Source: Amphiscolops sp. MND2022
Taxonomy: Eukaryota
Assembly (NCBI GenBank): GCA_964187785.1
Contig: OZ076409.1
Span: 12,154,001 to 12,218,000, forward strand
Length of the DNA: 64,000 nt
Direction of reading: 5' to 3'
The first letter of the stretch is position 1; each line of letters starts with the position of its first letter. A program made the position numbers and the translations under genes. Below, piece by piece: positions 10,301 through 37,097 of the stretch. Under the pieces are notes generated by a model, which saw only the letters and a program-made list of their open reading frames with translations, was not told the DNA's origin and searched no databases.

Positions 10301-11029
10301 ATGGCACCCGAAAAAGGCACCCAACGTAATGTCGAATGTTCCAATAACTGCGGAATATGGTCCTCCGTATGGATGCCAGATAGCAAAACTGAAGAAATTG
10401 AAAATAAAGGCTTCATCTATGGATTTTGCAACTTCTCCAAAATCAAAGAACTAGATCAAATAATGTCAAATCTTAAACAACTACAACTGGATATAACAGA
10501 CATTACAAAGGATATGAAACAGAACGAAACTTCCGTTACAAGAATAAAAACCCTGGAAGAGAGGGATCTCTCCAAGTTCGAAGCCAACAGTGCAACCCTT
10601 CTAGCAAATGTTGAAACTGAAAAGAAAAAGCAGAAAGACAAGGAATCTAATGTGGTAATGCTTGGTTTGAAAAAACTATCCAAACACGAAGCGGAAGAAA
10701 AAGTGAAAGATATCCTATCATATCTTGACATAGAGACTGATCCGGTGAAGATAGAACCCATCGGAACAGTAAACAAGCAGGACAAGCAGCTCCTACTCGT
10801 AAAATTCCCTAACCCAAACACGAAGTGGAAAGTAATTCGATCACCTAAAAAATTACGAGGAGATACGAGATATGATGGCATCTATATTAATCCAGACTTA
10901 ACACCTGAACAGCGTAAATTAGAATTTGAACCTCGAAATAAACTTCGTGAAATACGAATTTCCAACCCCTGCAAAGGGTATCACATAAAATCGGGACAGA
11001 TTGTGGAAATCCCACAACAACAAGGATGA
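10301..11029 (+). CDS. LINE ORF1 protein (coiled coil + RRM-like C-terminal region)
   Basis: 242 aa. NVVMLGL...LLVKF...IYINPDLTPEQR motif typical of CR1/L2-group ORF1; lies immediately upstream of the endonuclease. Confidence 0.75.
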   Translation: MAPEKGTQRNVECSNNCGIWSSVWMPDSKTEEIENKGFIYGFCNFSKIKELDQIMSNLKQLQLDITDITKDMKQNETSVTRIKTLEERDLSKFEANSATLLANVETEKKKQKDKESNVVMLGLKKLSKHEAEEKVKDILSYLDIETDPVKIEPIGTVNKQDKQLLLVKFPNPNTKWKVIRSPKKLRGDTRYDGIYINPDLTPEQRKLEFEPRNKLREIRISNPCKGYHIKSGQIVEIPQQQG

Positions 11030-11050
11030 CTAAAACCCCCAATTAATACT

Positions 11051-13540
11051 TTGACACCAAAAACTTTTAGACTGCTCTCTTGGAATATAGAAGGTGTCAA
11101 AAACAAACTCAGTTATTGCGAAACATACAATTCATATGACATCATACTGCTTGTGGAAACACTGTCAACAGAACAACTGCAACTGAAGGATTATATCACA
11201 GTGGATGTACCTGCTAGAAAACATAAGAGAGGTAGACCGACCGGTGACATAATACTTGCCATAAGTCATTCTATAAGTGAAAGGTATACTGTGATATACA
11301 AATCTCAGCAAATTATTGCTGTTGTTTTTAGACGACGTAGAATTGCAATTATTGGGTCATACTTCCAACCAAACTTCGAAATTGAAGACTTGATTGGGGA
11401 ACTTGCCGATGCATTGAGTAAGGCCAATCCAGACTATCACATCATACTACTTGGAAATTACAACTGTAGATTAGATATACCGAATGAGAAGCAAGAAACT
11501 CTTCTCAGCTTTCTCCAAGATAACAGCTTCACTTGCCGGAATAACCCTGAAGTCATGACTTATATATCACATAATGAGAGGAGTACTATTGACTTGCTTT
11601 TTACTATTATTCCTAAACTATTAAAATAGTTCGTAATTATAGACAGCCCCCTCTCAAAACACTCTCAAATTACAGCTACCATTAGTGTGACTCTAATGAG
11701 AAGAAGTAAATTATCTCCAAGAATTCGAAAATGTGATCCTATACGGCTTTACAACAACGTGGAAGAGATGAGAAAACAAGCTTGGGAATACACATTTGAA
11801 AATACAAACGAGGAGGCGTTATTGCTGGCTAGCGGAATTAAAGGATGTATCAATAGAGCAGCTATCCCCGCTTCAAAAAGGAAATCTAAAGCATGGTTCA
11901 CTAACAAACATTATGAATTACATCACAATGTCAAAATAGCCTACAAACGGTATAGAGAAAACCCAATAAAAACAAACGCAAAAGTGTTGGTGGATGCCAA
12001 AAAAGATTCTAAAAAAGAATGTAGAATGGCTAAGAACTCTCAGAATGAGAAAAGAGAAAAACTATTATTTGGGTAGCCGAGAAAAATAGATCTCAGTTTT
12101 GAAAGATTCTCACAGCCAGAAAGCCGCCCCAGATGATCACCTGTCAGACAACGCAGACAGAACTGGAAATACATTTTAAAGCAATCTACTTTCTTCGAAA
12201 CATACCTACTTGGACATTGAACTCAATTAAAATGACGGATCACGTTTACGAACTTACTAGAAACGAAGATTTCAACATCATATTGGATGCAGAAATAAAC
12301 CTTACAGAGATTATAATGGCTTTCCAATCATTGAAAAGGAGAAAAGCTATAGGAATTGACAGGATCTCTGGAGAAGCACTGAAAGACAACTTTGAAATAC
12401 TCCAGCACTGTTTTTTGTACACTTTCAACAGGATATTCGAATCTGCAGTATGCCCAACAGAATGGAAGACTGCAATAGTCAACTTTTATATAAAGGTAAA
12501 GGCCCCAGAAATGACCCGGATAACTATAGTGGGATATCATATCTACCCGCGATGTACAAAGGATACTATAAAATCCTGTATGCAAGACTAGTGCAATGGT
12601 TAAATGCATATGACATTTTACCAGAATCACAGCATGGCTTCAGGAGCGGACATTCTACTATAACAGCTATATCTACCCTGATGAAGGATGTCGACAAAGC
12701 TCTGGACGAGTCCATGCCATACTATATTTGTTTTGTTGACTTTAGAAAAGCTTTCGATTCTATCAATAGACGTATACTCGTTACAAAATTGCATACTCTG
12801 GGTATTTCAGGTCATTTCCTTAATGTACTTTTCCAACGTGTTGTCAATAATTTTGTATACATACGTATCGACCAGTACCTTACAGACCAACTGCCCCAAA
12901 ATATTGGTGTTCCTCAGGGAGACAGATTGGCACCTTTACTTTTCACAGTTTTCATAGCCGACCTTGACAAAATTTTTGAGGAAAACAGGAGTTACAGTCG
13001 TCTTTTATGCAGATGATTTAGCCATTGGACATACCGATTTGTCAAAACTACAACGAGCACTGTTAACGCTAGGGAAATATTGTGAGAAGAATGATCTGGA
13101 AGTCAATACTGAAAAAACCAAAGTAATGAAAATGCGAAAAGCAGGAAGATTATGTCTTTATGATCTGCTAACTTACAAAAACACAGCACTGGAATTCGTG
13201 AATACCTTCAATTATATGGGAGCTGTATTGCAAACAAATGCGAATCCAACATCCAACTAAACATCTGAAACATCTAAGAAGAAAAGCTCTCATTGGAACA
13301 AAAACTCTGTCAGTGAAAATAGATTTAGCAAAAGTGCAATTAAGCACTGCTATGACACTATTTGAATCCATAATACTCCCTTCGGCAACTTATTCTCTGG
13401 AAGTATACAGAGGAAAAATCACAGAATCAATCAGACAACGGCATATCAAAATCTTACATAGTATATTCTACAAGAGATGGGCTGGAGTCCCAAGAAGACT
13501 ACCGACTGAACAACTGATGAACAGAATGCTCGAAGGTGAC
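11051..13540 (+). pseudogene. LINE ORF2 (APE endonuclease + RT), several stops/frameshifts, N-terminal part
   Basis: LLSWNIEG, LLVET, LGNYNCR, STIDLLF (APE); KAIGIDRI, QHGFR, FVDFRKAFDS, GVPQGD, FYADD (RT), spread over several frames. Confidence 0.9.
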
Positions 13541-15170
13541 TGTCGCAGCCTCATGGGTTCTCTGGACCTGTTCTGCAAGAGTAAAAAGGAAAACAAAGAA
13601 GCAGCCTGAAAGACAAACTCAATTTGATGAAACTCAATAAACTGCCTTCCCCCCTTTTATTTCTTTGCTTTTATTGTCTCGTTGTTTACCCTAACCAACG
13701 AATTAAGTCATGTAAATATTTATTTTATAGTTTCTTTGGTTGAATTGTGGAAGCCAGATGCGAATTAAGACATGTTGACTAAGTTTTCTTAACTTTTCAC
13801 CCTAGTTATTACTTGAAATATTGAGTTGTTTAGTTGAATTTAGGCCATAATCTCTGAATGGAACAATGATTAATCTAAACGTGACTTTTCAAATCAATGA
13901 GTATGCGTCACAGTACGAAAATGTGAAAATGAATACACTTCATCATGCTGTTTGTAATTAATAATTATGCACCATCATACGGAAAATTTCTAACGCATAT
14001 ACTGCAATATGCGGATTTTAACCACCGCTTATGCGGCACCATGCGGAAAACAGTAATTTCCTTCATACATTGTCACAGTGATATTTACACGTCACTATGC
14101 GGAAAATCGCCGGCGCTTATGCGTCAATATGCGGTTTTCCGCGTTTTTCATCATACGGTGTTATATCATTATTGCATTGTGATTATTCGTTGATATGCGG
14201 AAATTTAAGATCGTATATACGTCATTATGCAGTTTTCCAGGGTTTTTGCTGTAGCTGTACAATACTTGTTTCTGCTTGTCATGCAATGTATATTTAGAGT
14301 TATAAATAGAATTACGACACATGATGTAATCCTTTTTATAGAATATGAAGACCATGACACCCATAAAAACGGGTGTAATCCCCACCATTTTTTCCTTGTG
14401 CTCAGGACCTTAGACCCCAATCATTCTTTGAAATAACTCTCGCTGAAAACAGTTGATAAAACCCACACTCCAAACCGTTGTAAAAGCAGTTTCTCATAAT
14501 CAACAGTTGTCTCATTTTTCCAATTTGTTTTGTTGAAAATCTCAGCTGAATTCAAATTCTTCCCCAGCAAATCCAACACATTTTCACTTGAGAACAATGG
14601 GAAATAAGGGAAACAGAAGATCTAGAAGGCATGAAACACCTTCACCTGAGCGAGAATTGAGTGAAACACAATTAGAAACGCCAATGCAAGGTAATGAAAC
14701 TTTAACTAATGTTAGTACTGTTATTCAGGAACCTTTAGGTGAAAACGAGAACAGATCTAGTCTAATAGAACCTAGTCAAATCAGTAACGAAATCCAAGTT
14801 TGGACAGAGAACTTTGAACAAAAGAACAATGACAGGATAATGAAAATGAGAGAAGAGATGGAGAACAAATTTGATGCAATTTTGAAAGAAATAAGAACAA
14901 GCAAAACAACATCAACAATAACAAATCCCAGACCTGAAATTAATGGAATGCAAAACTCTCAACCTTCGGGATCCAAAAGTATTAGGTCTAATGGAGTTCA
15001 CGCATCAAACATAGAAAACTCAGATACTGAAAATGAGGATGATCATCCCCTCAGAGCCTCTGACATGAGAGAATTAAGGAATCCTGCTAGACCACTTTGT
15101 CAAAATGAACCGAACTTAGACGAAACGATAATATCAGAAAGAGACTCCGAGGAGGAGGAGGATTATCACA
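13541..15170 (+). repeat. 5' LTR of Gypsy B (1630 bp)
   Basis: TGTCGCAGCC...GATTATCACA; near-identical to 28262-29889 (about 15 substitutions and 2 small indels counted by eye). Confidence 0.97.
13903..14232 (+). repeat. 32-bp-phased array of 16-bp motif ATRCGKYANYATRCGG in the 5' LTR
   Basis: Motif starts at 13903, 13935, 13967, 13999, 14031; 14087, 14119; 14185, 14217. Confidence 0.85.
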
Positions 15171-16291
15171 TGGTGACAGGAGCCAACAGACAACTCCATA
15201 GACAAAGCTCCCAAAATCCTCAGTCTTTAAATGATACAGTTGGATCCTACGCAGATCAAACAACGTCACCATTGACAAACAAACCCCTTGACCCAGTTAA
15301 TCAAATTGCACAAGCAATCGAGAAACTGGCAAATAAAAACTCACAACAATCACTTTTTCACCCGAAAAACACATTGACATTCAATGGAAAAAACGAGAAA
15401 AACGAGAAATTCGAGTACTTTGAAGACCTGTTTCATACAACCCTTCGCATGCAGCCAAATCTAACAGAGGAAATGAAAATTAACCACTTTCATGCACACC
15501 TCAGAGGTTTGGCATTAAAAACATTCAAAAACATACAAAGAACGCCATCTACCACACTGGAAGACATTCTAAAAGTCTTTCGCAGAAAATACGTGAAACC
15601 AGAATCCAGTGCCTCAGCAAAGCACCGATTCAATAGACTTTTCTTTGACCCCGAAAACCAAAAACTACCAGATTGTCTTGAAGAACTCCAAGAAAGCGCT
15701 GAAAAAGCTTTCGGAGATAACGCACACCAGATGATAGAGAACCTACTCTATGCAAAGATGCCCCCTCACCTTAAAAAATCCATCAACCAAGCCTATCTCG
15801 AGAACGGCACATACGACCAGATCGTTAAACATCTCGAGAGGGAGATGGAGCTAAATGGTTTGGAAGCAGACGAAACCTCGGTCAAGACCCAAATGACCGT
15901 CACCAAAAAAGAACAAAATACTGAAAAACCAACTAAAAAACAAAATGAGAAGTCTAAAGCTCAGACTCCAAAAACAGTACCCAACAAGACACTTAAAAAT
16001 GACCAATGCCGTTACTGCAAGGAGACGGGTCATATGATGGCTGACTGCCCCAAGCTAGCAAAACGGCGTAAACTTGAAGAGGACCCGGATGCAGAAAAAT
16101 GCCAAAACTGCAATACACCAGGTCATGAGGAAGAAAACTGCTACTTCGGCGCCAACATGGATAACCGACCACCGAAGTGGAACCTCACCGAAGCCCAAAA
16201 GAAGGTTATCGAAGCTTACAAACAAGCTAGAAAACCTATAAAACCAAAAATAGAACGACCTCAACAATCCTCTTCCAAGGATTTAAACTAG
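14597..16291 (+). CDS. gag: Gag of Gypsy B; starts inside the 5' LTR
   Basis: ATG at 14597 (MGNKGNRRSRR); capsid-like middle region; two CCHC knuckles CRYCKETGHMMADC and CQNCNTPGHEEENC. Confidence 0.9.
   Translation: MGNKGNRRSRRHETPSPERELSETQLETPMQGNETLTNVSTVIQEPLGENENRSSLIEPSQISNEIQVWTENFEQKNNDRIMKMREEMENKFDAILKEIRTSKTTSTITNPRPEINGMQNSQPSGSKSIRSNGVHASNIENSDTENEDDHPLRASDMRELRNPARPLCQNEPNLDETIISERDSEEEEDYHMVTGANRQLHRQSSQNPQSLNDTVGSYADQTTSPLTNKPLDPVNQIAQAIEKLANKNSQQSLFHPKNTLTFNGKNEKNEKFEYFEDLFHTTLRMQPNLTEEMKINHFHAHLRGLALKTFKNIQRTPSTTLEDILKVFRRKYVKPESSASAKHRFNRLFFDPENQKLPDCLEELQESAEKAFGDNAHQMIENLLYAKMPPHLKKSINQAYLENGTYDQIVKHLEREMELNGLEADETSVKTQMTVTKKEQNTEKPTKKQNEKSKAQTPKTVPNKTLKNDQCRYCKETGHMMADCPKLAKRRKLEEDPDAEKCQNCNTPGHEEENCYFGANMDNRPPKWNLTEAQKKVIEAYKQARKPIKPKIERPQQSSSKDLN
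15171..15185 (+). other. Primer-binding site of Gypsy B (lies within the gag frame)
   Basis: TGGTGACAGG immediately after the LTR-terminal CA; tRNA identity not determined. Confidence 0.7.
16282..16288 (+). other. -1 ribosomal frameshift slippery heptamer (T TTA AAC)
   Basis: X XXY YYZ in the gag frame directly before the gag TAG; the -1 frame is open from 16282 into pol. Confidence 0.8.
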
Positions 16292-19200
16292 AAACGCCAC
16301 GCCTTAACAAACAAAACGCCCAAATAACAACTACAAAACCACAAGACGTCTGGCAGCGTCAAGTGGATACCATAAACATACAACTTAAACAGCTGACTAC
16401 AGAACCAGACTACACACCTCAAACACACAATCACTCCGACAACGATGAACCCCCACAGGAATCATACTATGAACTCATGAAAGATGCTCCTGACAAGTAT
16501 TTTTCAGACAATACTCAAACCTCCCCTGTACCTACAGACAATTCACCAGAAATCCACCACCCGAGTACTTTCTCTTGCAATGAACAAAAACAACCCCTTT
16601 TAGACGAAGATATCACAAACCACATCCAATTTGACCAAGAACGCAACCTGTCATACCTACCTATGTCAACCTCGTTAACATTGAAACGAAAACGCCACAT
16701 GTACTACATGCCAATGGACTTCGAAAAACTCACACTTGATGGACTCATTGACACAGGAGCCCTGACTAGTGCAATCTCCGAACAAGACCTTAACAAAATC
16801 AAATTAATTGCAAATGAAGCAATAAAAGATACTGGCCCACCGCCAAATTTCCAAATTATGGTGGCCAACGGTCAACTAGAGGTACCAACCGGCACAGTAC
16901 TACTTGAATTCGAAGTGGCTGATTTCATGTTACGAGAAAACTTCATCATCATGAAAAACCTACCAAACCCACTCATTGGTCTCTGCTTCCTTCGCAGAAA
17001 CAATGCAGTCTTTGATGTCACACAAGGCATCCTAACTTTTCCATACCTCTCAATGCAATTAAAACCAGACACACAAGTAACAATGCGTCAAGCAACACCA
17101 TTGTTTGCTGAAAATACATACACCCTTCAACCAGGCGAAACCCTCGCCATAGCAAGCAGAATGCCCCACCTGTTAGACCACGATGCAACAGGAATAGTCA
17201 CACCCTCACCACAATTCGAAAGCCACGACAGCATTTTCATCACATCGTCACTTAGTACGGTCAACAATAATGCTATCGGGTACCAAATAATCAACTTTTC
17301 AGAACTCCCATATACAATAGTTTATGACACCCATTTAGCAGACTTCAAAATCCTCACACCAGAACAAATCAAACATATACAACCTGTAGATCCAGCGATG
17401 TTGTCATTCATGATACAACATGAAGAAACAACCGAGATCTACATAATTGAACTACTGAAAGTTCCTTCACAAAACCCCGAACAAGAATCTTACTGGTTCC
17501 CAACACCAGAAGAACCAGGGGATCCTACAACGTATACCCCAATCCAACAACGAATATACAATGAACTCCTTGAGCTCAAAGAACTTGAACAACTCAACCC
17601 ACAAGACGATGCAAAATCAAGAAAAGCTTTCCTCTCGAATTTCGACTGGACTGACACAACGCTCAGCCAAGAAGAGCAGAAACAAATTGAAGAAATCCTC
17701 ATTGAATTTCACGATATTTTTGCCAGACACCGATTCGACATTGGCACCAATCGTGAATTCAAGGTTAAACTCACACCAAAAGATGATCGACCAGCCTACA
17801 GCCAAAGTTTGCCAACACCAATCAACCTCAAAGATGACATTACCGTAGAACTAGCACTTCTACACAAATATGGAATCATAACAACCCTACCTTTTTCAAA
17901 ATACGCTAGTCCAATTTTTGCACAACGCAAACCAAATGGACGCCTCAGACTACTTGTGGATCTCAGAAAAATCAACAATTTAATCACCGAAGACTACATC
18001 AACAATAACCACCCGGTAAGCACACTGTCGGATGCAGCACAACACATGGCAGGCAAGAAACTTTTCTGCAAATTAGACTGCTCCCAAGCTTACCACTGCC
18101 TTCAAATGGCAGACTACCAATCCATTCAGATGCTTGCTTTCAACTTTGCAAGCCGAACCTTTGCTTATCGCCGACTCGCTCAAGGCCTTAGCAGATCTCT
18201 CTCGGCTTTTTCTAGCTTCATGAGGGAGTACCTTGACAAGGCGATCAAAGCTGACCAATGTGCACAGTATGTCGATGACATTGGTATAGCAGCAAATGAC
18301 TTAAAACAGTTATGCGCCAACATCAGGACGGTCTTTGAATGTATCCGAAATGCTGGTCTAAAACTCACAATGTCCAAATGCCATTTCGGTGTCAAACAAG
18401 TAGATTTTCTAGGCCGCACAATCACACCTGTTGGCGTGGCCCCTCAAGCCGACAAAGTCAAAGATTTTTTGTCGAAATTGAGATTCCCCAAATCCAAAAA
18501 AGCACTCCAAAGGTACATAGGATTCCTAAACTATTACCGCAATTACATCCCGAGACTTTCTGAACGATTATCGCCGTTCTTCAAACTCCTCAAAGAAACC
18601 TCCAAATTCTATGTACCCACGAACTTGGTGGAAGACTTCTCCAACCTAAACAAACTTCTCGAAAACTCTTGCCAATTAGCCTTGAGACAACCTCTCAAAG
18701 ACAAACAACTCATAGTCATGTCTGATGCAAGCTTTACAGCAGCAGGATATGCTATCATGATAGAAGACGATCCCAGCCAAAAACTCCAGTCCAAACGCAA
18801 AACATATGCACCCATAGCATTTGGTTCGAAAACCTTCAACCCAACACAAACAAAATTGTCGATCTATGCGAAAGAATTCCTTTCCATATACTTTGCTTTT
18901 GTTGAATTTGGACACCTCATGTGGGGAAGCACTTTTCCAGTCATAGTGTTCACCGACAATAGATCTGTAACACGCTTTTTTCAAGCAAAACTCATTCCTC
19001 CAGCACTTTGGAACGCATGCGATTATGTCCTACAATACAATTTTGTCATTGCCCATGTTGCTGGTTCAATGAATACGGCGGCGGATTTCCTATCCAGAAC
19101 GGAAGTCAACCCAGTTGAAAAACTTGAAATGAGCATAAGAAACGATATCCAAACCAAAGCGATAAAAGTCAATATACAATCTTCTGGTATTGTGGAAGAA

Positions 19201-21160
19201 GAACAAATCTACATCCTTCCCGATGATGAATTTGACGAAAACAAACTTTGGGAAGAAAAGCAAAACGTGAGAAATCAAGCTCAAACTGAGACTCACAATG
19301 ACCCAGAAAACAATGTCACTGAACTTCAACAATTTCACAAACCGACATCAGGCTTAAACACATGCTCTGAAGGACATTTCCGAGACAATGCCAGAATTAG
19401 ACTCGAACAAAACAATGACATTGTCCTTAGGAACCTCAGAGCTAAAATAGAAGGAAACCCCTTTGATGAAAACGACTTGGCATCTGATTACAGATATCAG
19501 CATTACCTCCAAAACATAACCAGAATCGAAATCAAGCAAGAGGTTCTAACGAGAAGGTACTACACCGACACAGGAACCACCTCGCACTATCAGATTTTGT
19601 TACCAACACAACTCCTAGAAGAACTACTTCAAGCATTACACGGTCATAACTCAAACCATCCGGGTATCACAAAGATGATACAAGAAGTACGGCAGAAATA
19701 CTACTACCCTTGTATTGCAAAATACATTAAAAATGGGTGAGTAACTGCCAAACCTGCATACAAACCAAAAGGATCAATAATGACCTCCTCAGGACCGAAC
19801 TACTTAATTGCCCAGAATGGGATCTCGGCCCTGAAGACATTCTTCAAATGGACATTCTACCAAATCTACCACCCAGTGGTGGATATGACAGTATAATAAC
19901 AGCGATAGATGTTTTCTCTCGATACATGTTTGCATACCCAGTGACCCGCATCACTGCAACATCAGTAGCCAGAGTGATAATGGACATATTATGCAAACAT
20001 ACATACCTTCCAACAACAATCATCACAGACCTTGGCACACAATTCAATGCTCAAGTAACCAATGAAGTTACAGCTGTCCTTGGTGTTGAGCTAAAACATG
20101 CAACAATGAAACATGCTCAAACAATAGGACTTCTGGAAAGAACACATGCTTCAGTCAAAACCCAACTCAAAGCAGCAACTGGAGAATTTCGACATAATTG
20201 GCATAAATTTCTCCCGTTAGCAGTACTAAACCACAACACAACCTATCATGCATCGCTTGGTTGCGAGCCTTCACGAGTTTTCCATGGCCGCATCCCGCAC
20301 AACATACTGGATTACAAGTTAGGATACAATCCTAATCCGAAATATCAACCCCAAACTGACGTTGCAGAAGAAATACAACGACGAATGAGAATACTTTTAG
20401 ACCAGACCAAAAAGAACATAATGCAATCCTATCTCAAATACAAAGCCTATTATGATAGGAAAGCAAAAGCATCACCGTTAGAAACAACGGACTACTGCTA
20501 TATTTTAAACCCGAAAGCTGACACACAAGCAACAAAAATACCATTTCGGGAATTCAGATGGCAGGGTCCTTACAAAGTCGAAAAAGTCCTTCCTAATAAC
20601 AATTATATAGTTAGGAGACTGGGAACAAATAAAACACAACTTTTACATAGAATCAGGTTGAGAAAATTCACACCGCAAGCACCGTTAGCCGATATTTTCG
20701 TACGAGAATCTGATTGGCAAAAAGATGATCAAATGCCAGTGGCACATGATGACTTATATGCCCAATCATGGAACACCAATTTTGGGCCTAACCCATTTGA
20801 GGATAGCCCTCCAAATTATACACAAATTACTGATGACATTGAATATGTACCAGTTGAAGTACCTGAAAATAACCACCCTCCCACCCACGAATTTCCAAAA
20901 AATAGTGGGGGGAGCCCAGTGGAACAGACCACTGAACGCGAAGAAGAAAATTGTGATGAAAATCTACAAGAAATCCAAGATGAAAAATCAGAAATCTCCC
21001 AAAAAACCCCAAAAGAAAATACACCAGAAACGCAAACCCAAAAAACCCCAGAAAATTCCGAAAATACTCCATTGCAAGAAGAACCCATAAATACTCGTGG
21101 TGAAAAATACAATTTACGACCTAATCCCAACCCATTTACTCCGACTCCTACAGATACTAA
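16282..21160 (+). CDS. pol: Pol of Gypsy B (protease, RT, RNase H, integrase); 1-nt frameshift at ~19730; true end approximate
   Basis: LIDTGA protease, YVDD, MSDAS..ADFLSR, H..H..(frameshift)..CQTC, QMD/ITD/LER core, WQGPYKV. One A is missing in the AAAAA run at 19729-19733. Confidence 0.93.
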
Positions 21161-21353
21161 AAACACAGAGACTGACAACAATTTCTTTCCTTCCAGTCTA
21201 TCTTTTTCTCTGTTTGAAACTGTCTTCATTCTGCACTATATCCATCATAAACAATAATACCGATGGATTAATGAATACAATAACACAGAATTTTAAAGAA
21301 ATACATAAAAACAAAAATCGAAGTTTACAATCAGAAGTTTACACAATAGTGAA

Positions 21354-24300
21354 TCAATTCTTCTTGTTCTTTGTCGCCGTATCCTTTGCTTTTGGAGCAT
21401 CAGGCCCAACATTAACACAGCGTGGCAAAGAAATAGTAGCCTTTCCCAAAGACGAACGAGGGGATGGTGAGTTGCTGCTGGTGCCAGTGTCACTCCCGCA
21501 AGTAAGATCAACGTCGTCGGGAAGACACAGTTTAGGAGGGGCGATAACAACCTTCTTATATGAAGTCTCGAACGAATTCTGCAATGTTGCTCTCCTAGCA
21601 TTGCTACCTTTTAGAAAATTCCAGACCGAGAACTTACGGTCGTGAAGTAAATCCTTTCCCCTGCCCAACAATCGGAAAACACGGGAAATTGATCGTGGGT
21701 CCCGATACAAACTCGACACATTGGGTACAGTTGTAAATGATATCTGTACACCTGCCACACATGAACGAAAAACATCTGCATCAGCCCCCAATTCCGGAAT
21801 AGGAATCACGAAAGGGACAGGAACTTTAACCAACGGGGGTAAACATAAACTGGCATATTTGAATACCTGGTACAATTCAGGACGACACTGCATTTCGTAG
21901 TGCGAAACTAAAAACTGGAACCAGTCTTCAGGCTGAGGGACCTCGCAAGCTCTAAGCTTCGTGACAAATGAGCGATACTGACTGATGGTCTTAGTTTTCT
22001 CACTTGAAGTTAACCAACCAACACTCACAAAATGACCGGTAAGGCTTTCCACTGCAGCGACATATTGATCTTCTGTTCCGTACAAAATAACAGCAGAATC
22101 AAAGCATGCTAGTCCACGAACCAAACTGGATTTGTTGATCTCATGCGACAGAAGAAACGCACAGAATGATTTACAGAAGGATATAGTCTGCTCAACGAAC
22201 TTGCCCGGGCGTGGAAGCTTGCTGGTGGTAACAAGGCGATGATAGTCTTCGTTGAGAACGAATTGGTCGGCAGTTTTAAAGGGCAAATCAGTCCGGTTCA
22301 GATCGAGGCTTAGATACCGCTCCCATTCGGAAATATTGCCGAGGACACTATCAGGCAAGATACTCTGGAGTTGGCTGTATACAAAGACAGCATACTGGTT
22401 GTATAGCCTAAATCCAGCACCGAATTGATCGCGAATCTCTGAGAATGCGGAATCATCTGAAACATGAAAGATATTAAATGAGATAACACCAAATGTTGAG
22501 TATTAGACTGACAAAGCGTCAACATACAGTTTTGAAATGACGCCTATGCGTTACAATACAGCTATTAATAGACAATTATACACCACTGTGCGGTTTTGAA
22601 AAAACGCATATGCATCATCATGCGGTTTTCAGCCGACCACCATACGTTACCATACGTTTTTTAACGGACGACTATACGGTATCATGCGGTTTTCAGCCAG
22701 TGACTATGCGTCACTATACGGAATTCAATCAGTGTTCATATGCCATTGCGCGCATTATAGCTGACGTAAGAACAAGCTACGATGATCTAGCTGGTGAATA
22801 TGCATTACTATGCGGAATGTTATAAACGAGCATTCGCCACCATGCGAATGGTGAGTTTTGATTATGCGGTACCATACGGAAATTGTAGTATCGTATATAC
22901 GGCATCCTACAGAATTTGAAGATCAGCCACAAAGCGATGAAAGAAAGGGATGGACATGATTATGATTTTATCCAAAGTACATAAATGATTGTGGCAACGA
23001 AAAAGGTGTACGAAACGTGGCATGATTCAAAAGGAATCCTTCGTTGATTAGAGTTAGCAAATATACGGCGAATGAAGTTACGGAAAATAATTAAACAACT
23101 TTTGGACAAAATACCATATGAAAAGTCGAGAAATTGTGTGAAATTTATACTAACAGTGATCAAGAACACAGCGGATAATGAACAATCTGGCCAAATACGC
23201 CGTATCAAGGCGGAAGCACTCGTCAAGGGTGTTGGGCTATAATGATAAGAGAGAAAATAAAGACAGAACGGGAAAAAACCGAAATGATACTTCAGAAGGA
23301 AACAATACAAACCTCTCTCATGTGAAACCTGTAAGAAGGAAGTCGAGACACTCGGTTTAGGTGGTCGAGGACTTTATCCCAATGGATAGACAGGGTCTCA
23401 ATCAGAATGGATGCTTCCTTTGGAGAATATGAGAGGTCTATCACACACTGTAAAGCAAGTGGTTTAACACAGGAATTTCTATAACTATATTCATAGTGTG
23501 AACGAAACCTTACTTTGTAAAGGGTTGGAAGTGATTGGAGCCAATCTCTATCTAACGCTGTCCGCAGTTTCATTAAAAGAAAATCCAAGATAGTGCGGTA
23601 ATCGTGTCTCTCAAGGCTTCGAGACGTAGGCAAGGAAAGGCAGCGCTCCAATTCACTAGGGCCAAATCCATTGACAGAGGTGGGCCGTAGGCGACCAGGC
23701 AACGAAGCCTTAAAACAGGAATTAAGTCTTTCAGGACAATCAATAAGGCAAATGCAGGATGGGTGGACATCAAATAAACTCAAGAAGGATGAAACAACTC
23801 CCATCATCTTCTTTGGGACCAAAGTTCCACGTGGACCTGTTCCAAGACAGACTTGGTAGAAGACATTGCCTGCCCAGAAATTCAGAAAAATGTGTGTCTC
23901 GAATTGGTTGTTTTGAAATGATAATGAATATGTCTCGTTGCCAGAAATGGAAGTAACACAATGTTGTAGCAGTTCACGAAACATGAAAACAATGATACCC
24001 TGCAAACAAAAATGTTGTATCAGAGAATGGAATTAGCCCAACTATGAAAGGACAAAAGTATACTCACAAATAAGCGCTCTCGGTTCCAACTGAAAGTTGA
24101 CTCCTGGCTGTTCCCTGGGAAGAGCCGAACCATTTCACTCCACATCCCTGAGAGAGTGTCCACGTTGCCACCATGGCGAAGTCCGTACTCGAGGATAGCG
24201 ATTTGTGAAATGACATCTTCGCTGGGGTTGGAAGTGGTAGAGACGTCAGGGAGTCGATCTTGTCCCACTAGAAGGCGGCACGCATCTAACTGAGGCGCAA

Positions 24301-25834
24301 TCGGGTAGGTCTCTTTGGCTACCCTCTTGGCTTCCTGTAATGCACTTCCGGTGAGGGCTTTCGCAGAGCGGTCGAATAAAGGCACCCCCGGTATCTCTAA
24401 TCTGATGCGGTGTTCTTTGATTAAATGCGAATCAGTTTTGAAATGTGAGAGCAATTCAAGAACTCCTCTACTCATGAGCGATAACTCCACCCTGCATACC
24501 CGGCACCACCACTTATAAGGCGTCTTCTGTCGGTCTATCGGTCCGGTGGCGAAGAATTTCAGAACTGGGTGCTTACGCATCATGTGGGGTTTTAAGGAGT
24601 ATTTAGGCCTACGCCGTTTACCACTTGGGGCTGGCACATCTTCACAACTTGATTGAGTCATGGGCTCGTCCGGATCTCGAGCCGTTGTTTCCCTTACGGG
24701 TCCTTTGTCTGGAGAGACCGGCGGGTCTTCAATCACACTGAATGTAAAATTGTTGGTGGAAGCCGGATCAGGATCGTTCAACACTGTCTGAGGGATTCTT
24801 CCCAAAATACTGGTGATAGCTAGAACCTCTCGTCTGGTAATAACCGTTTTCGGGGGACCATCAGAGCTCGATCCTTGGATTTCATCAGGGACTGGTGTAT
24901 CCCTAAGCGGATTTTCCGGAGTTGACTCACTAAGCGGAATTCCGCACCCGTTCATCTGAGAGGTTCCTGGTGCATGATCTGTCTCCTCCACTCGTTTGAG
25001 AAAAGAAGAAAATCTGGGTGAAGTAGTGTGATAACTGTTCAAAGCTTCAGCAGCTTCAGTGACATCTTGTAAAAAGGGATCATTGACTGCCATTGATGAT
25101 AAATTGGACAACAACGGACTTACGTCACAAGCAGGGTCTTGCGGAGCACCTCCCTTCTCTGTCTCAGTCGTTTCCTGGATGACGAGTACCTTTGGAGATA
25201 AGGATGCGTCTAAATTATCTACAATCATTTGCTCTATCCCGTCATCATTCCGAGTTGTGGGTTGCTCAGGTAGTTCGTCCAATCTAGGAGACTCTACAGT
25301 AGTTTGGGAGGTCAAGACAGGAGTAGTTTCCGAAGTAGATTGAACAGGTTGTGGAGGATTCTCTGATTTAATTGCAGCAACTTCAAGCGGAATATATACT
25401 TTAGTAGGGGATCTAGCCGGCGACTTCTGCGTAGATCCGAAATCAACTGAAACAAATTGATTTAATGTCAATTTGGATAAAATTCGTTGATGAGCGAAAC
25501 TAATCCTACGGAACAACTGAAACCGGACGCGGTGTAAGGAAGTTTCAAAATTGGGCGGAAGTAGCTCAAGATCAAACCGGATGTAGAAATACTCCAAAAG
25601 AAATTTGAAAATTGCTTTTCATCATGAATAAACCAGTTTTCACTGAGTAGCCTGGCCAGCTATTCAAATTAAAATTCGTTTCTGATCAGAAAACTCTCAA
25701 ATCTCAAATCACAAACTAAACAATAAATGGAACGTACCAGGAGAAGTTGAAGTTGGCGATTTGTAGCCCCAATTTGCAAGCTCTTTCCGGAGGGTTTGTT
25801 GTCCTCTTGATTTTCTGCGATTAGGGGAATCCAT
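21354..25834 (-). CDS. Antisense five-exon accessory gene of Gypsy B: predicted 1115-aa BED-finger / hAT-transposase-derived protein. Exons 25834-25738, 25446-24068, 23999-23313, 23236-23155, 22456-21354
   Basis: Four GT-AG introns (donors GTACGT, GTGAGT, GTTTGT, GTTAGT; pyrimidine-rich YAG acceptors), with phases 1,0,0,1 matching at both ends. The 3348-nt spliced frame has no internal stop and links three separate ORF-track ORFs. Confidence 0.8.
22546..22912 (+). repeat. 32-bp-phased array of the same 16-bp motif in intron 4 of the antisense gene
   Basis: Motif starts at 22546, 22578, 22610, 22642, 22674, 22706; then 22800, 22832, 22864, 22897. Confidence 0.88.
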
Positions 25835-27249
25835 TTGCAGCGGAAATGAGGAGTAAAGTGAGCAGATAACAAATTGAATTGAATTTGTGAAGCAGTTTTA
25901 GCAGATGGGAATAAAGATTGGATCAGAATTGGAATTGGAAATGACAATAACTTTGACTGAAACTGATATGAAATACAAAGAAGACTACTAGAATAACCTG
26001 TACTAGAAAATTCAAACAAATTGCAATAACAATTGAAGGCGTGGCGTAAAAACGAAAGGCAAAAGAGTAAATGAATACTGAAATTTGCGCACTAATGCAG
26101 AAAATACTCAAATCTGATTGGTCAGTTAATTACCGTCCATTACTGCCAGAATGGACGAATACGTAATTATCGAACTTAACGACCGGTCAACGATGCGGAC
26201 TTCATGAATGGCCCTCATGCGGCATGGAGAGGAATTTCACCACTGTCTATGCGGCAGTATACGAAAACGACTTTATCAATAATGCGACAGTATGCGGAAA
26301 TTTGTAACCGCATATGCGGCAGAATACTGAAAGCCACCACCACACCTGCCGCAGTATGCGGAAATCCACAACCGCACGTGCGGCAGAATACTGAAAGTTA
26401 CCAATACACATACGGCACTATGCGGAAAATTACAACCGCGTGGGCGGTATAGTACAGCTTGACGACCTAACTATGTCTACATGTTTTAAAGGACATACAC
26501 GACTTAACTTCAACTTCTTACGATGCTGTGATGTTCAGTAGCTAACACTAGCTATTGAATATGCGAGAGTGATGATCTATTAACAGAATACATTTTTATG
26601 CATGCCAATTCAGACAAACCGAAAGAAAATGAAAAATAAACTAGATCTGATGCTCTTCTACCTTTTTGAGATATAACGCACTTTTCAAGTGCGGGACTCG
26701 AAACAAAACTTTGATGAACTACGGATAAATGTGATATTTCACAAAATTTAAATTTTCAGTCTTGAAAAACTTCATTCATAAATATAAACCTCGGTCATGT
26801 AAACCTAGATATGTATATCAATTTTCACTTCATTTCTCCATCAATGGGAGTTATTAGTCATGAAATCCTTTCAAGTTAGTTTAGTTATGATTTTGTTTTT
26901 ATCTCATTAAAATGGTTCAACACTGTCAAGCGTCTTGTGTGAAGATGAGATTCTCCCTGAAAACTGAAGAAACACCTTAAATGGTAGATGTTTATATCAA
27001 ATTAAAAGGAAACTTGATAATTTTCGCGGATTCAACAAGTTCTATCACAGAAAAGACCCTATAAGGAAAACGAAAACCCTGAAATCATGACACTCAGTTT
27101 TTCCGCGGGGTTTTATTATAAGCGAAAGAAACGGAAAAGACAATCACCATATGGTCTTTTGATTCGCCCAAAAGCAGTAACTTCAACTAAAACGAAAACT
27201 ACCTCCAAACCTTACCTGAGGAAATCATCCTACAACATAAGAAGAGAAC
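25835..27249. promoter_or_regulatory. Putative bidirectional internal promoter region of Gypsy B
   Basis: Non-coding interval between divergent ATGs (25834 minus, 27250 plus); contains an ATTGG/CCAAT box near 26117 and the phased array. Inferred from layout only. Confidence 0.45.
26217..26457 (+). repeat. 32-bp-phased array of the same 16-bp motif between the two divergent accessory genes
   Basis: Motif starts at 26217, 26249, 26282, 26314, 26346, 26378, 26410, 26442. Confidence 0.88.
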
Positions 27250-28305
27250 ATGAATAACCTGCAATTTACCCTTGAAGATAGCCCTTTGCTCTCAATTCAA
27301 TCTCCTGGGATTGTAGATATATCAAGCGATTCAGGAGAAGAATTTGTCGTTCATCCGAATGATCTGTCCGACGTAGAGGAAAGGTTCAGGGTTGGTGGAC
27401 CGAGATCGGATATGTTGACGGCATTCGTGGGCGCAACTTCGGCAGCACTTTTCACATCCGGACCAGAAGACCCCTCAATTGTTGAGACAATTGACACTGC
27501 TGGGACACAAATTGAGCGCCAGATGATGGAAATCATCGAAGAGCATCAATTCAGTAGAGGGTCTTCATCAACTTCATTCATTGATACGGAACTGGAAGAC
27601 TCACCCATGTCGCCATGGGAGTCGGCCGAACCTTCGGCACGACCTGTAAACAGCTACGGGAGGCCAGCTGCGGCAATCCTCCCTACACCAAGAAGCAACA
27701 ACCACGAAACGACAGTGGTTAATAGACCCATTCCTACTTACCCGCCTAATTTTGCAAACACTTACCCGATTTATCAACCCCAACAAATCACTGATCCTAG
27801 ACATCAAGCAGATCGCCCTCTCAATGGTATCCAACCAAGGACATTGGGTAACAGTGGGGCCTTCTCCGCTAACCCTAATGGTTTGCCTATATATAGTAAT
27901 GCACCAATAATGATCCAGATACCTCCCCATGAAGAAAGTGCCCATGTTTCACAATTGATTACTGGGCCTAATGCTGGACCCTCTCCTCACTTTCCGTTCC
28001 AAGCGGGACATAGCACAAACCTACTACTCTTGCCCTTTCAAGAAAGACTGCAATATTGACTTCTGCCCCCCGTGATGCCAAACGTCGCTGGATTTTGCGA
28101 TTGGTGTGGTAAATGCTATGATTTGATAGCATTGGAGACGCTGGGAGAGTACCTTATTGCAACCGCTTATGACGGGGAGACGGTCAGGGACAGAGGTGTC
28201 AGATCCCGTGCCTTTATAGATGGGTTCGAGGCTGCACTGTTCTCCTTTAAAGGTGCGGGACTGTCGCAGCCTCATGGGTGCTCTGGGCCTGTTCTGCAAG
28301 AGTAA
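27250..28305 (+). CDS. Accessory ORF3 of Gypsy B, unknown function; one in-frame TGA at 28057-28059; ends inside the 3' LTR
   Basis: ORFs 27250-28059 and 28072-28305 are the same frame separated by a single TGA. S/P-rich N-terminus; C-terminal GFCDWCGKC motif. Confidence 0.6.
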
Positions 28306-29889
28306 AAAAGGAAAACAAAGAAGCAGCCTGAAAGACAAACTCAATTTGATGAAACTCAATAAACTGCCTTCCCCCCTTTTATTTCTTTGCTTTTATTGTC
28401 TCGTTGTTTACCCTAACCAACGAATTAAGTCATGTAAATATTTATTTTATAGTTTCTTTGGTTGAATTGTGGAAGCCAGATGCGAATTAAGACATGTTGA
28501 CTAAGTTTTCTTAACTTTTCACCCTAGTTATTACTTGAAATATTGAGTTGTTTAGTTGAATTTAGGCCATAATCTCTGAATGGAACAATGATTAATCTAA
28601 ACGTGACTTTTCAAATCAATGAGTATGCGTCACAGTACGAAAATGTGAAAATGAATACACTTCATCATGCTGTTTGTAATTAATAATTATGCACCATCAT
28701 ACGGAAAATTTCTAACGCATATACTGCAATATGCGGATTTTAACCACCGCTTATGCGGCACCATGCGGAAAACAGTAATTTCCTTCATACATTGTCACAG
28801 TGATATTTACACGTCACTATGCGGAAAATCGCCGGCGCTTATGCGTCAATATGCGGTTTTCCGCGTTTTTCATCATACGGTGTTATATCATTATTGCATT
28901 GTGATTATTCGTTGATATGCGGAAATTTAAGACCGTATATACGTCATTATGCAGTTTTCCAGGGTTTTTGCTGTAGCTGTACAATACTTGTTTCTGCTTG
29001 TCATGCAATGTATATTTAGAGTTATAAATAGAATTACGACACATAATGTAATCGTTTTCATAGAATATGAAGACCATGACACCCATAAAAACGGGTGTAA
29101 TCCCCACCATTTTTTCCTTGTGCTCAGGACCTTAGACCCCAATCATTCTTTGAAATAACTCTCGCTGAAAACAGTTGATAAAACCCACACTCCAAACCGT
29201 TGTAAAAGCAGTTTCTCATAATCAACAGTTGTCTCATTTTTCCAATTTGTTTTGTTGAAAATCTCAGCTGAATTCAATTTCTTCCCCAGCAAACCCAACA
29301 CATTTTCACTTGAGAACAATGGGAAATAAGAGAAACAGAAGATCTAGAAGGCATGAAACACCTTCACCTGAGCGAGAATTGAGTGAAACACAAGTAGAAA
29401 CGCCAATGCAAGGTAATGAAACTTTGACTAATGTTAGTACTGTTATTCAGGAACCTTTAGGTGAAAACGAGAACAGATCTAGTCTGATAGAACCTAGTCA
29501 AATCAGTAACGAAATCCAAGTTTGGACAGAGAACTTTGAACAAAAGAACAAGGACAGGATAATGAAAATGAGAGAAGAGATGGAGAACAAATTTGACGCA
29601 ATTTTGAAAGAAATAAGAACAAGCAAAACAACATCAACAATAACAAATCCCAGATCTGAAATTAATGGAATGCAAAACTCTCAACCTTCGGGATCCAAAA
29701 GTATTAGGTCTAATGGAGTTCACGCATCAAACATAGAAAACTCAGATACTGAAAATGAGGATGATCATCCCCTCAGAGCCTCTGACATGAGAGAATTAAG
29801 GAATCCTGCTAGACCACTTTGTCAAAATGAACCGAACTTAGACGAAACCATAATATCAGAAAGAGACTCCGAGGAGGAGGATTATCACA
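28262..29889 (+). repeat. 3' LTR of Gypsy B (1628 bp), including a copy of the phased array (~28625-28954)
   Basis: Direct repeat of 13541-15170, followed by TSD GTGAC. Confidence 0.97.
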
Positions 29890-30077
29890 GTGACGACCTC
29901 GGAATATCTCATTCATACAGAACTAGCAGAAGAGAAATTGCTACCTTCTATAGTAATGGATGTCATCATTTGTTATGTCACATTGTGGGATGCTACGCGG
30001 TTACAGATTTGCCCTACCCTTGTAAATGTATACTTTGTGGTACAGAGATCATCAATTTGTGGTACAGAGATTCATAA
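29890..30077 (+). pseudogene. C-terminal Cys/His-rich end of LINE ORF2
   Basis: Removing Gypsy B and one TSD copy gives GAA GGT GAC GAC CTC (..MLEGDDLGISH..CHHLLCH..CKCILCG). Confidence 0.8.
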
Positions 30078-34968: not shown

Positions 34969-35168
34969 NNNNNNNNNNNNNNNNNNNNNNNNNNNNNNNN
35001 NNNNNNNNNNNNNNNNNNNNNNNNNNNNNNNNNNNNNNNNNNNNNNNNNNNNNNNNNNNNNNNNNNNNNNNNNNNNNNNNNNNNNNNNNNNNNNNNNNNN
35101 NNNNNNNNNNNNNNNNNNNNNNNNNNNNNNNNNNNNNNNNNNNNNNNNNNNNNNNNNNNNNNNNNNNN
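34969..35168. other. Assembly gap (200 N)
   Basis: Run of N. Confidence 1.
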
Positions 35169-35272: not shown

Positions 35273-35486
35273 CTAGGGCCACTCAACCCATAGGGTTATC
35301 TAAGTTCCGGTGTATTCGTAGGCCACTCAGCCTGTCGGTGTATTTGTAGGCCACTCAGCCTGTAGGGTTAGTGTATTTGAAGGCCACTGAGCCTGGGTTA
35401 GTGTATTCGTAGGCCACTTAGCCTGTGTTAGTGTATTCGTAGACCACTTAGCCTGTGTTAGTGTATTCGTAGGCCACTTAGCCTGT
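35273..35486. repeat. Minisatellite, ~30-bp unit GTGTATTCGTAGGCCACTYAGCCTGTGTTA, ~7 copies
   Basis: Seen directly; units are adjacent, with no unique spacers. Confidence 0.85.
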
Positions 35487-37097
35487 TTACGATAGGATCA
35501 ACTACCGGACGCAAAGCAGCAAACCGTTTTTTGGATTACATCTGACTTCTTGTGTTTTAAAAATGGCGCAAACTTCGGCCAAAGTTACTTTTTCGGCAGT
35601 TAGTCATTTAAGTATTCGTAATTTGTCATCTTTCCTTTTTGGGGGCCTGACTAAGTGTTGAGCAAATCAGTTTTCCTTACTTCGGTATTGAGGATTCGTC
35701 AGATGTACATTTTCTCATCACGAGTCGGTCCTGGTTCCACCTCCTTGTCAATCATGACTGGTGGTTTTACTTCGTTTTCAATAAAATTTGAGGGGCGGTG
35801 TTACTGACTCAGTTTTTTCCACTTTTGTAAGCACAACTTAAACTTCGGCTTAATGATTGACATTTGCACTTTTTTTGCCAGGTCTCTTTTTCCCACAAGT
35901 TCCAGACAACTCTCTCCAGCTAAATCTGGCTGAAGGAAATAATACTCTACAATTTACAATGACCTAAAAGGCGAATTTATTTTATATTCTGAAAAGTCGA
36001 TTTTCGTGTTACACATTCTAAGTGCAAAAACTAGGTGTTCCGATCACCGAAGGCTGAAACTAAGCACACTCTTTGGAAGGACATTTAGAGGGCTACAAAA
36101 ACGTTATGATCATTATCTTTCTATTTCAACTCCTTCACGGTGAAAAACGCCCTTGAAATAAGGTAGTCAAAAATCAGGTTTTGACATTTGCAAAACTCTC
36201 AACTTTGGAGGGCTCGTACTCATTCAATTTGAAAGGTACAGCGTGGGGGCTTATATACATCGCTAGCCCAAGCCATTAAAGTATTTTGCACTTTAGATGA
36301 TGTCTCTATCTTTTCTCAACAAAATGTGATAGCACTTTTTCTGAAAGTAGTCATTTTCTCGATGTTTATGTCCGGACTTTCAACTTTGGAGGCCAATATG
36401 TCAAAACCAGGTCCTTTTTCGGAAAAACGCTTCTGCTAAACGCTTTGTGCATGAGTCTTGTGCGTCTACCCTGAAAGTTTTAGCTCGATATCGCCCAAAA
36501 CATGCGGGGGTAGCATTTTGGTAGGTCAACATCCCTACGGCAGAAAGAAATCACAACTTTAAATTCTTAGGGGTTCTTCGCTAGTGCGCCGCAGCACTCT
36601 ATTTATTATTCTATTCACTCCTCCACTTCAATTCTCAAGTACGCTGTGAAGGAGGCGGTTATTGTGCGCTTACACGTTGAGTACTAAGCGATAACTTGCG
36701 AACAACGGCTATTTTGGCCATTTTAGGGCTGTTTTTAACGTTTGCTGGCTCAGTTCTCAAAAACTGCTGAATATTATTTATTTTCCATTTCACACAAGTT
36801 AGAATATTTTATTATCTTTATTTTAAGCCCATTTCCGAACCTTTTCTGACAACTGCGATCACACGAAAATTTTAAAGGAGACTCAGTTAAAGGAAACCGT
36901 GTGCGGCGGCCGTTTTCTTATTAGCTATGCGTACAGCCACTCACAGCGCGTTCTTAATTTCATTCCTTTCGCTTTCTGACACGCTTAGCTGAGGTGCATT
37001 CTATGCTTATCACGCTCACTGTGAGGTTTCACACTTAGCCACTCTTATTTACATTCGTGAACATAGCAGTTTGACTAACTTTCTAATCATCTTAAAA

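Follow-up and report, generated by a model that had tools for sequence, protein, structure and literature searches.

How does a gene that is broken up by introns persist inside an element that multiplies through RNA, and what is such a gene there for? This question is raised by a stretch of contig OZ076409.1 from Amphiscolops sp. MND2022 (assembly GCA_964187785.1, positions 12,154,001 to 12,218,000; the whole stretch of 64,000 nt is called the window below), in which a Ty3/gypsy long terminal repeat (LTR) retrotransposon contains, antisense to its own gag and pol genes, a predicted gene of six exons. The host genome measures 1.07 Gb and is that of an animal, with a metazoan signal of 47 cadherin-repeat matches. 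LTR retrotransposons are usually taken to need gag and pol only. We consider it probable that a very abundant Ty3/gypsy lineage has in the antisense gene a genuine accessory gene, and that this gene encodes a transposase-derived DNA-binding protein serving the element.

An earlier note on this DNA had proposed a gene of five exons, and the join can be reproduced exactly: 3348 nt and 1115 aa, running from MDSPNRRKSRG to KNKKN*, the asterisk being a single terminal stop, with four introns of the lengths claimed (291, 68, 76 and 698 nt) that are all GT..AG. The four junctions and their phases are correct, but one intron had been overlooked, so that the exons number six. The missed intron (23513-23448, 66 nt, GTAAGG..TTACAG) splits the third exon of the five-exon model; in the window copy it is in frame and stop-free, and therefore readable by accident. 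It becomes apparent from 20 other copies of the gene, which were picked from the best hits rather than at random and are spread over the identity range (protein identity 55-98%). The more distant copies have stops or frame changes between the conserved peptides ...LHK and CV..., and a GT..AG search between these flanking peptide anchors located the intron in 19 of the 20 copies, at 63-84 nt. Nine of these introns contain in-frame stops and five more have a length that is not a multiple of three, from which we conclude that the gene has six exons and five introns. The revised gene comprises 3282 nt and encodes 1093 aa; its parts are as follows, in the order of transcription.

25738..25834, minus strand: exon 1, 97 nt, carrying the start codon (MDS...) and matched by tblastn in 15 of the 20 copies
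25447..25737, minus strand: intron 1, 291 nt, GT..AG, splice sites conserved
24068..25446, minus strand: exon 2, 1379 nt, found in all 20 copies
24000..24067, minus strand: intron 2, 68 nt, GT..AG, splice sites conserved
23514..23999, minus strand: exon 3, 486 nt, with an RNase H-like half-domain predicted in structural model 2 (see below)
23448..23513, minus strand: intron 3, 66 nt, absent from the five-exon model
23313..23447, minus strand: exon 4, 135 nt, delimited by copy comparison
23237..23312, minus strand: intron 4, 76 nt, GT..AG, splice sites conserved
23155..23236, minus strand: exon 5, 82 nt (27 codons and 1 nt), 89-100% identical in all 20 copies
22457..23154, minus strand: intron 5, 698 nt, GT..AG, splice sites conserved, containing a CCGCATA-type array at about 22617-22869
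21354..22456, minus strand: exon 6 (exon 5 of the five-exon model), stop codon included, with an all-helical C-terminal domain predicted in structural model 1

No AATAAA occurs on the minus strand within 360 nt downstream of the stop codon of the gene.

That the gene sits inside an LTR retrotransposon can be read directly from the window. The two copies of a direct repeat (13538-15170; 28259-29889) share 98.8% identity over 1634 aligned columns; the element that they delimit has TG..CA termini and the 5-bp duplication GTGAC on both flanks; and Pfam families follow one another on the plus strand in the order zf-CCHC, gag-asp_proteas, RVT_1, RT_RNaseH, Integrase_H2C2 and rve. By its LTRs, target-site duplication and gag-pol content the element is a Ty3/gypsy LTR retrotransposon (Metaviridae), and it is a young one, its LTRs differing by only 1.2%. 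A tandem pair of elements in place of a single element with long LTRs is ruled out by the TG..CA ends together with the matching 5-bp duplication. The parts of the element on its own strand are these.

13536..13540, no strand: left target-site duplication, GTGAC, the same five bases as at 29890-29894
13541..15170, plus strand: 5' LTR, TG..CA, one copy of the direct repeat, its last ~575 nt encoding the gag N-terminus
14597..16291, plus strand: gag, counted from the first ATG of its frame up to the stop codon; Pfam finds a zinc knuckle of the CCHC type in it
16231..21257, plus strand: pol, with Pfam hits for protease, reverse transcriptase, RNase H and integrase
28262..29889, plus strand: 3' LTR, ~1.63 kb like the 5' LTR, the other copy of the direct repeat
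29890..29894, no strand: right target-site duplication, GTGAC, matching the left copy

The pol of the window copy shifts frame near 19731-19740, within the integrase zinc-binding domain, unlike that of 19 of the 20 other copies, in which both pol halves share one frame. The integrase lies on the opposite strand from the antisense gene and converges on its stop codon in 20/20 copies, ending 100-250 nt away; in most copies of the family the gene is thus found on the opposite strand between pol and the 3' LTR, the position by which antisense open reading frames (ORFs) of such elements are recognised. The earlier note had spoken of the 'cargo' of one element. That the gene is carried is borne out, but the linkage to integrase in every copy compared is not that of a one-off passenger, and 'cargo' understates what is, across these copies, a fixed and ancient component of the lineage.

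We also observed that the first ~191 gag codons lie inside the LTR (14597-15170 and 29319-29889) and are hence carried by both LTRs, with an ATG straddling the LTR end and the first bases beyond it. This gag-coding stretch is, apart from one 27-nt match, almost the sole part of the LTR that can still be aligned with the LTR of a divergent copy; the proportions of nonsynonymous (pN) and synonymous (pS) differences between the two are 0.225 and 0.639.

Is the antisense gene kept as a gene? Its exons are present in very large number. For the last exon a first look at the genome gave 6359 candidates; the 112 that were scored all have expect values (E) of 6e-135 or lower and 55-100% identity, and 85 of them, counted by hand, are free of stops. 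Exon 3 gave 4976 candidates, of which 150 were scored and 135 (again counted by hand) have no stop. Exons 2-5 of the five-exon model stand in the same order and spacing in 20/20 copies, and two of the five copies that lack a tblastn match to exon 1 show an MDS start ~300 nt upstream of exon 2.

The splice sites are conserved along with the exons. GT is found at intron 1 in all 15 copies where the exons on both sides of it could be placed, at intron 2 in 20/20, at intron 4 in 19/20 and at intron 5 in 20/20, and AG in 15/15, 20/20, 20/20 and 18/20, respectively; for these four introns of the five-exon model the totals are 74/75 and 73/75 located junctions, with exceptions in L020, L014 and L021 (labels of individual copies). 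Intron lengths vary between copies with no regard to the reading frame (intron 2, 68-142 nt; intron 4, 69-76 nt; intron 5, 371-840 nt, in addition to the range given for intron 3), and intron 1 measures 283-296 nt in all but one of the 15 located copies, the exception being L016 with 2354 nt. The intron sequences themselves diverge from copy to copy while the splice dinucleotides stay. The test set beforehand, that splice sites should be conserved among related copies, is therefore answered by GT and AG at homologous places in nearly all of the 20.

Introns in the sense RNA of a retrotransposon are lost on retrotransposition, whereas introns in antisense orientation are invisible to the spliceosome on the genomic RNA and persist. 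The earlier note's proposal that orientation is the reason why this gene has kept its introns gains support here, as the introns have survived through thousands of copies, with the splice dinucleotides retained and the intron bodies drifting. Their retention despite saturation of synonymous sites between subfamilies (see below) is what would be expected if the genomic (sense) RNA never presents the introns. The genomic RNA would be the complement of the pre-mRNA of the gene, so the five introns would go unseen on the RNA that is reverse transcribed, and each new copy would inherit the intron-containing gene.

Selection was assessed from copies free of stops and frame changes in the exon compared, which leaves 16, 13 and 6 of the 21 copies (window included) for the last exon, exon 3 and exon 2 in the numbering of the five-exon model. 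For the last exon pN is lower than pS in 120/120 pairs, with a median pN/pS of 0.30; for exon 3, after removal of the intron, in 78/78 pairs (median 0.29); and for exon 2 in 15/15 pairs (median 0.47). Between subfamilies pS is saturated at 0.8-0.9, which means that the true pN/pS is lower than computed; pairs that are not saturated give 0.18-0.24. One near-identical pair has a ratio of 0.79, as expected for post-insertion decay. The intact frame of the window copy, which had been taken as a sign of selection, proves little by itself, because the copy is young and its own pol is frame-changed. At the level of the family the suggestion holds up: with pN below pS in all 213 pairs, the copies do show purifying selection on the gene.

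An objection to this interpretation is that the gene is a hitch-hiking relic, a hAT transposon or host gene that landed backwards in an ancestral element and has been copied since without any role. Such a relic need belong to no known family, and none was recognised. Many copies do contain stops or frameshifts, and an intact exon 2 is seen in just 5/20 of the other copies (6/21 counting the window), the N-terminal half of its product is poorly conserved, and only 3/20 sampled copies, the window aside, are open in exons 2, 3/4 and 6 together, which must be held against a gene in working order. Breaks confined to single copies are, on the other side, typical of dead insertions of any element. 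A passenger without a role would not be expected to keep pN below pS at saturated synonymous sites, nor to keep its splice dinucleotides while the intron bodies diverge, nor to occupy the same position in 20/20 copies across lineages in which the genes are only 55% identical. Nor did we find the inverted repeats of a nested transposon around the gene when 21000-28300 was scanned: the inverted pairs there are mostly of 11-17 nt, with a few of 20-26 nt at 73-85% complementarity, and were judged to be at chance level. We regard the relic hypothesis as very improbable and continue with the gene as a selected part of the element.

The antisense gene is not the only addition to gag and pol. A second accessory ORF, which we call ORFx, lies on the sense strand, head to head with the antisense gene across a 1.4-kb spacer (25835-27249).

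27250..28059, plus strand: ORFx, 269 aa from the first Met, matched in 18/20 copies at 36-100% identity

The ORFx product is of low complexity and rich in Pro, and it matched no family in Pfam; its pN is lower than its pS in deep comparisons (e.g. 0.137 vs 0.771).

Comparison of the window with the copies L020-L022 reveals that the parts of the element do not share one history. The integrase is 97.5% identical at the nucleotide level (pS 0.03-0.04) and ORFx has a pS of 0.01-0.10, whereas the body of the antisense gene is only ~67% identical, with a pS of 0.90-0.93. The identity switch is sharp, at ~21169 within the C-terminal tail of pol, and the other boundary falls inside exon 2 (~25375). 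The same mosaic mismatch was found in L017 and L027, and L023 also belongs to the mosaic set. Near-identical pol and ORFx around a saturated gene body indicate that the parts of the element differ in age, and point to recombination or conversion by which the accessory gene body has passed as one block from lineage to lineage.

What kind of protein, then, does the gene encode? Sequence comparison identifies one region of it, the exon 2 product, in which a poorly conserved N-terminal half rich in Ser, Thr and Pro is followed by a basic cluster, a CxxC..HxxxxH finger and helices. The finger after the basic cluster is the best-kept stretch (...HPVLKF.ATGP.D...PYKWWCRVCR.ELSLMSRG...). The zf-BED model matches 3/45 relatives, one of them above the Pfam cut-off (22.0 vs 20.6 bits), and five of the 45 match a C2H2 model; the finger exon of the window itself has no Pfam hit. 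Otherwise, Pfam searches with 37 and 45 relatives returned scattered chance rows. A protein-atlas look-up with exon 2 yielded weak leads (0.82-0.87) to finger clusters of the FAM200/ZBED5 and SPIN-DOC-like kinds.

Database relatives are of the same exon-sized nature. Exon 2 found 274 proteins among 1.84 billion representatives, and the best 150 of the 274 are all short ORFs of about the length of an exon. Among longer, spliced or annotated relatives none was found for the last exon, and the other search gave just one, a raw ORF of 718 aa that has an intron in frame by chance. Intron 2 is in frame and stop-free in two copies, L031 (G000:C5:66603500-66605800) and P0258, producing raw two-exon ORFs of 693 and 718 aa. 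When queried with the last exon, the protein atlas offered clusters of viral RNA polymerases (0.89-0.90, 111-122/256 features); we rejected this candidate, as the structural model of the exon is all-helical and the families proposed disagree among themselves.

We therefore turn to predicted structure, for which two natural open frames, rather than joined exons, were folded separately: the last exon with 36 relatives (model 1), and the L031 frame that extends from the finger through exon 3, intron 2 being in frame, in an alignment of 44 rows (model 2). In model 2 the finger is a strand-strand-helix unit with a predicted local distance difference test score (pLDDT) above 90; helices follow, and then an arrangement of strand-strand-strand-helix-strand-helix at pLDDT 60-73. 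A Foldseek search with model 2 against 350,542 PDB chains has the hAT transposase Hermes in all of its top 8 rows (best E 2e-4, probabilities 0.72-0.99), and VIA-align superimposes the model on Hermes 2bw3_A with Z 6.7 and a root-mean-square deviation (rmsd) of 3.1 A over 106 residues. Model 1, which is all-helical, has the C-terminal part of Hermes at rank 1 of 48,161 chains in a structural search (Z 4.9, rmsd 11.2, 169 residues). At the level of the predicted fold, the exon 3 product is thus assigned an RNase H-like domain. As two independent models point to Hermes, one clearly and one in a near-tie, and as the domains stand in the hAT order, we lean towards a hAT ancestry for the protein.

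Several results weigh against so specific an ancestry. On the sequence side, no exon of the window gene matches any Pfam family at E up to 10, a PDB search with the last-exon profile gave 0 matches at E up to 10, and the hAT dimerisation family PF05699 is matched by 0/37 relatives of the last exon. On the structural side, the confidence of the two models is middling (mean pLDDT 63 for model 1 and 70 for model 2); Foldseek found nothing at E <= 0.001 for model 1 in the PDB or among viral models; the Hermes match of model 1 is weak, lying within 1 Z of unrelated helical proteins; the TM-scores of model 2 to Hermes are only 0.21-0.23, a remote link; and VIA-align ties Hermes with CoaX (first, Z 8.3), sugar kinases, actin-like ATPases and YqgF, all of which have RNase H-like or related folds. 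Finally, there are no terminal inverted repeats around the gene, and the positions of the DDE triad are not conserved across copies. These positions, assigned by eye from the predicted secondary structure, the copy translations and the list of invariant columns, hold Q or H at the end of the first strand, D, N or G after the fourth strand, and a variable residue before an invariant R-x-F in the last exon. With its DDE positions not conserved the protein would not be a working transposase of the usual kind, and on balance we favour a loss of catalysis.

The same results admit another reading, in which the likeness to hAT is convergent or an artefact of modest models, and the zinc finger of the protein is joined to a generic half-domain, RNase H-like or actin-like, that has a different ancestry. 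The VIA-align ranking, which places the other folds at or above Hermes (Z 8.3 to 6), would then be as expected, as would the TM-scores of about 0.2, the middling confidence of the domain and the lack of a sequence match to any hAT family. It would leave as coincidences that Hermes fills the first eight Foldseek rows and also comes first for a second, independent model of another part of the protein, that the order of finger, helices, RNase H-like domain and helical domain is the hAT order, and that even the weak atlas lead for exon 2 is to clusters of the FAM200/ZBED5 type. We give this alternative a smaller, though not negligible, share of belief than hAT ancestry, which we retain as the preferred reading.

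If the protein binds DNA, a possible target is present in the element. The window holds the heptamer CCGCATA 19 times where 3.25 are expected, and in none of 100 shuffles was it found that often. Eighteen of the 19 lie inside this element, 17 of them on the strand of the antisense gene; each LTR has five, the spacer upstream of the gene has six and intron 5 has two. The arrays outside the gene are the following.

14008..14200, minus strand: five CCGCATA in the 5' LTR, with an equivalent array in the 3' LTR
26248..26425, minus strand: CCGCATA array with a 64-nt tandem unit, in the spacer between the head-to-head accessory genes
28730-28922: CCGCATA array in the 3' LTR

A half-site often recurs 10 nt on, and successive motifs are mostly 10, 22 or 64 nt apart. 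In 21/21 copies the region upstream of the gene and intron 5 are rich in a looser form of the motif, mostly at 2-16 per kb (the lowest densities, in two copies, are 1.4 and 1.5); elsewhere this form stands at 0-0.2 per kb in 19/21 copies, with 0.8 in L027 and 1.7 in L011. A divergent copy, with a gene only ~55% identical, likewise has five motifs in its LTR.

Transposases of the hAT type bind short repeated (subterminal) motifs near the ends of their transposons. We tentatively propose the CCGCATA arrays as a candidate target of the antisense-gene protein, by analogy with these transposases. It counts against the proposal that protein and arrays are linked by co-occurrence alone, and that a host factor could bind the arrays. 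They stand where enhancers would be expected, in the LTR and in the spacer between divergent genes, and so may bind a host transcription factor, while the product of the antisense gene, although a real accessory protein, acts in some other way, for instance by steering integration to chromatin or by blunting silencing; BED-type fingers and transposase-derived proteins are also found as tethers or chromatin proteins. That few parts of the protein are as well kept as the finger stretch speaks less well for such a role, as does the retention of the 7-mer in 21/21 copies, even in the gene's own intron, which fits a self-contained pair of protein and site and is suggestive only. We think an action independent of CCGCATA possible, if somewhat doubtful.

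Taken together, the proposal that we prefer, an accessory gene for a DNA-binding protein of the element, would work as follows. A minus-strand promoter inside the element, in the 1.4-kb spacer shared with ORFx, would presumably drive transcription, and the transcript would be spliced and then translated into the 1093-aa protein. Expression and splicing are inferred; for splicing the evidence is conservation only, which also has to be set against the proposal. The protein, predicted to consist of a disordered N-terminus, the basic cluster, a C2H2/BED-like finger, an RNase H-like domain and an all-helical C-terminal domain, may act as a sequence-specific DNA-binding factor on the element's own DNA, the best candidate target being the same-orientation CCGCATA arrays in the LTRs, the spacer and intron 5, and its purpose may be control of transcription or of the fate of the element DNA.

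A bolder version is that an animal retrotransposon took over a whole DNA-transposon module, namely a disabled hAT transposase together with the arrays of its binding sites, and that recombination has passed this module from one retrotransposon lineage to another, as happens with env genes among retroviruses. We offer this as speculation that is more likely wrong than right. If it is true, the element would carry its own DNA-binding factor acting on its own DNA, through arrays in the LTRs, the two-way promoter and an intron.

The window is otherwise crowded with other mobile elements.

1-6066, plus strand: frame of 2021 aa that is still open where the window start cuts it, with a GC content near 50%; its domains are the reverse transcriptase, RNase H and integrase from a different Ty3/gypsy element, and ~950 residues for which no family was found come after them
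10301-13016: pieces of a non-LTR retrotransposon (endonuclease, reverse transcriptase)
34969-35168: assembly gap of 200 N, with short tandem repeats nearby at 35308-35489
38960-39994: ORF of a Tc1/mariner transposase, 344 aa
49588-55656: a further LTR element (LTRs of 206 nt, 97% identical) whose reverse transcriptase and integrase ORFs are split over several frames

The case bears on several matters beyond this locus. To the antisense genes of retrotransposons it adds an animal host, a multi-intron structure kept through deep divergence and purifying selection that can be measured, as well as a recognisable architecture (a finger with a transposase-like fold) and a candidate DNA target, so that the purpose of such genes becomes directly testable. 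For genome annotation it means that thousands of exon sets of this kind would be called host genes or missed. A near-identical pol next to a saturated accessory gene further shows that modules are exchanged between retrotransposon lineages.

Among known systems, the hAT transposases (Hermes; PDB 8edg, 4d1q and 2bw3) and the BED-finger proteins derived from them share with the antisense-gene protein the order of a BED-like finger, a helical linker, an RNase H-like domain and a helical C-terminus, and the gene has short repeats near it, reminiscent of the subterminal repeats to which hAT transposases bind. Unlike a hAT transposon, however, the gene has no sequence-level match to the group, no conserved catalytic positions and no inverted repeats; it is split by five introns, and it is carried and multiplied by a retrotransposon. 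The antisense genes of complex retroviruses offer a second comparison: HBZ of human T-cell leukaemia virus type 1 (HTLV-1) is a minus-strand regulatory protein encoded near the 3' end, with a spliced transcript. Genes of the HBZ type start in the 3' LTR, whereas the gene described here starts ~2.4 kb inside the element and has no sequence or fold relation to them.

Closer in layout are the antisense ORFs of plant Ty3/gypsy elements (maize Grande, rice RIRE2 and Silene Retand), which lie between pol and the 3' LTR; the parts of PMC7264820 consulted, which also mention antisense retroviral genes in general terms, report them from most copies of a family, without similarity to known proteins and of unknown function, with a regulatory role proposed. 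Location and orientation are the same as here, and we claim kinship in layout only; multi-intron structure and a transposase-like fold are not described for the plant ORFs in those parts of PMC7264820, where the word 'intron' occurs 0 times. Boty-like Ty3/gypsy elements of Botrytis cinerea carry the antisense gene brtn (Zhao et al. 2011, as cited in PMC8365987), which is likewise an extra antisense gene on a gypsy element; brtn is fungal, whereas the present gene, at 1093 aa, has an animal host and a different architecture. In PMC8220671 antisense ORFs come up in the introduction only. The open-access full texts searched gave no animal LTR retrotransposon with an intron-containing antisense gene or a hAT-like gene. 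The layout was thus already known from other hosts, and what this element adds to it is the animal host, the size and intron number of the gene, the transposase-like protein that it is predicted to encode, the motif arrays and the apparent exchange of the cassette between lineages.

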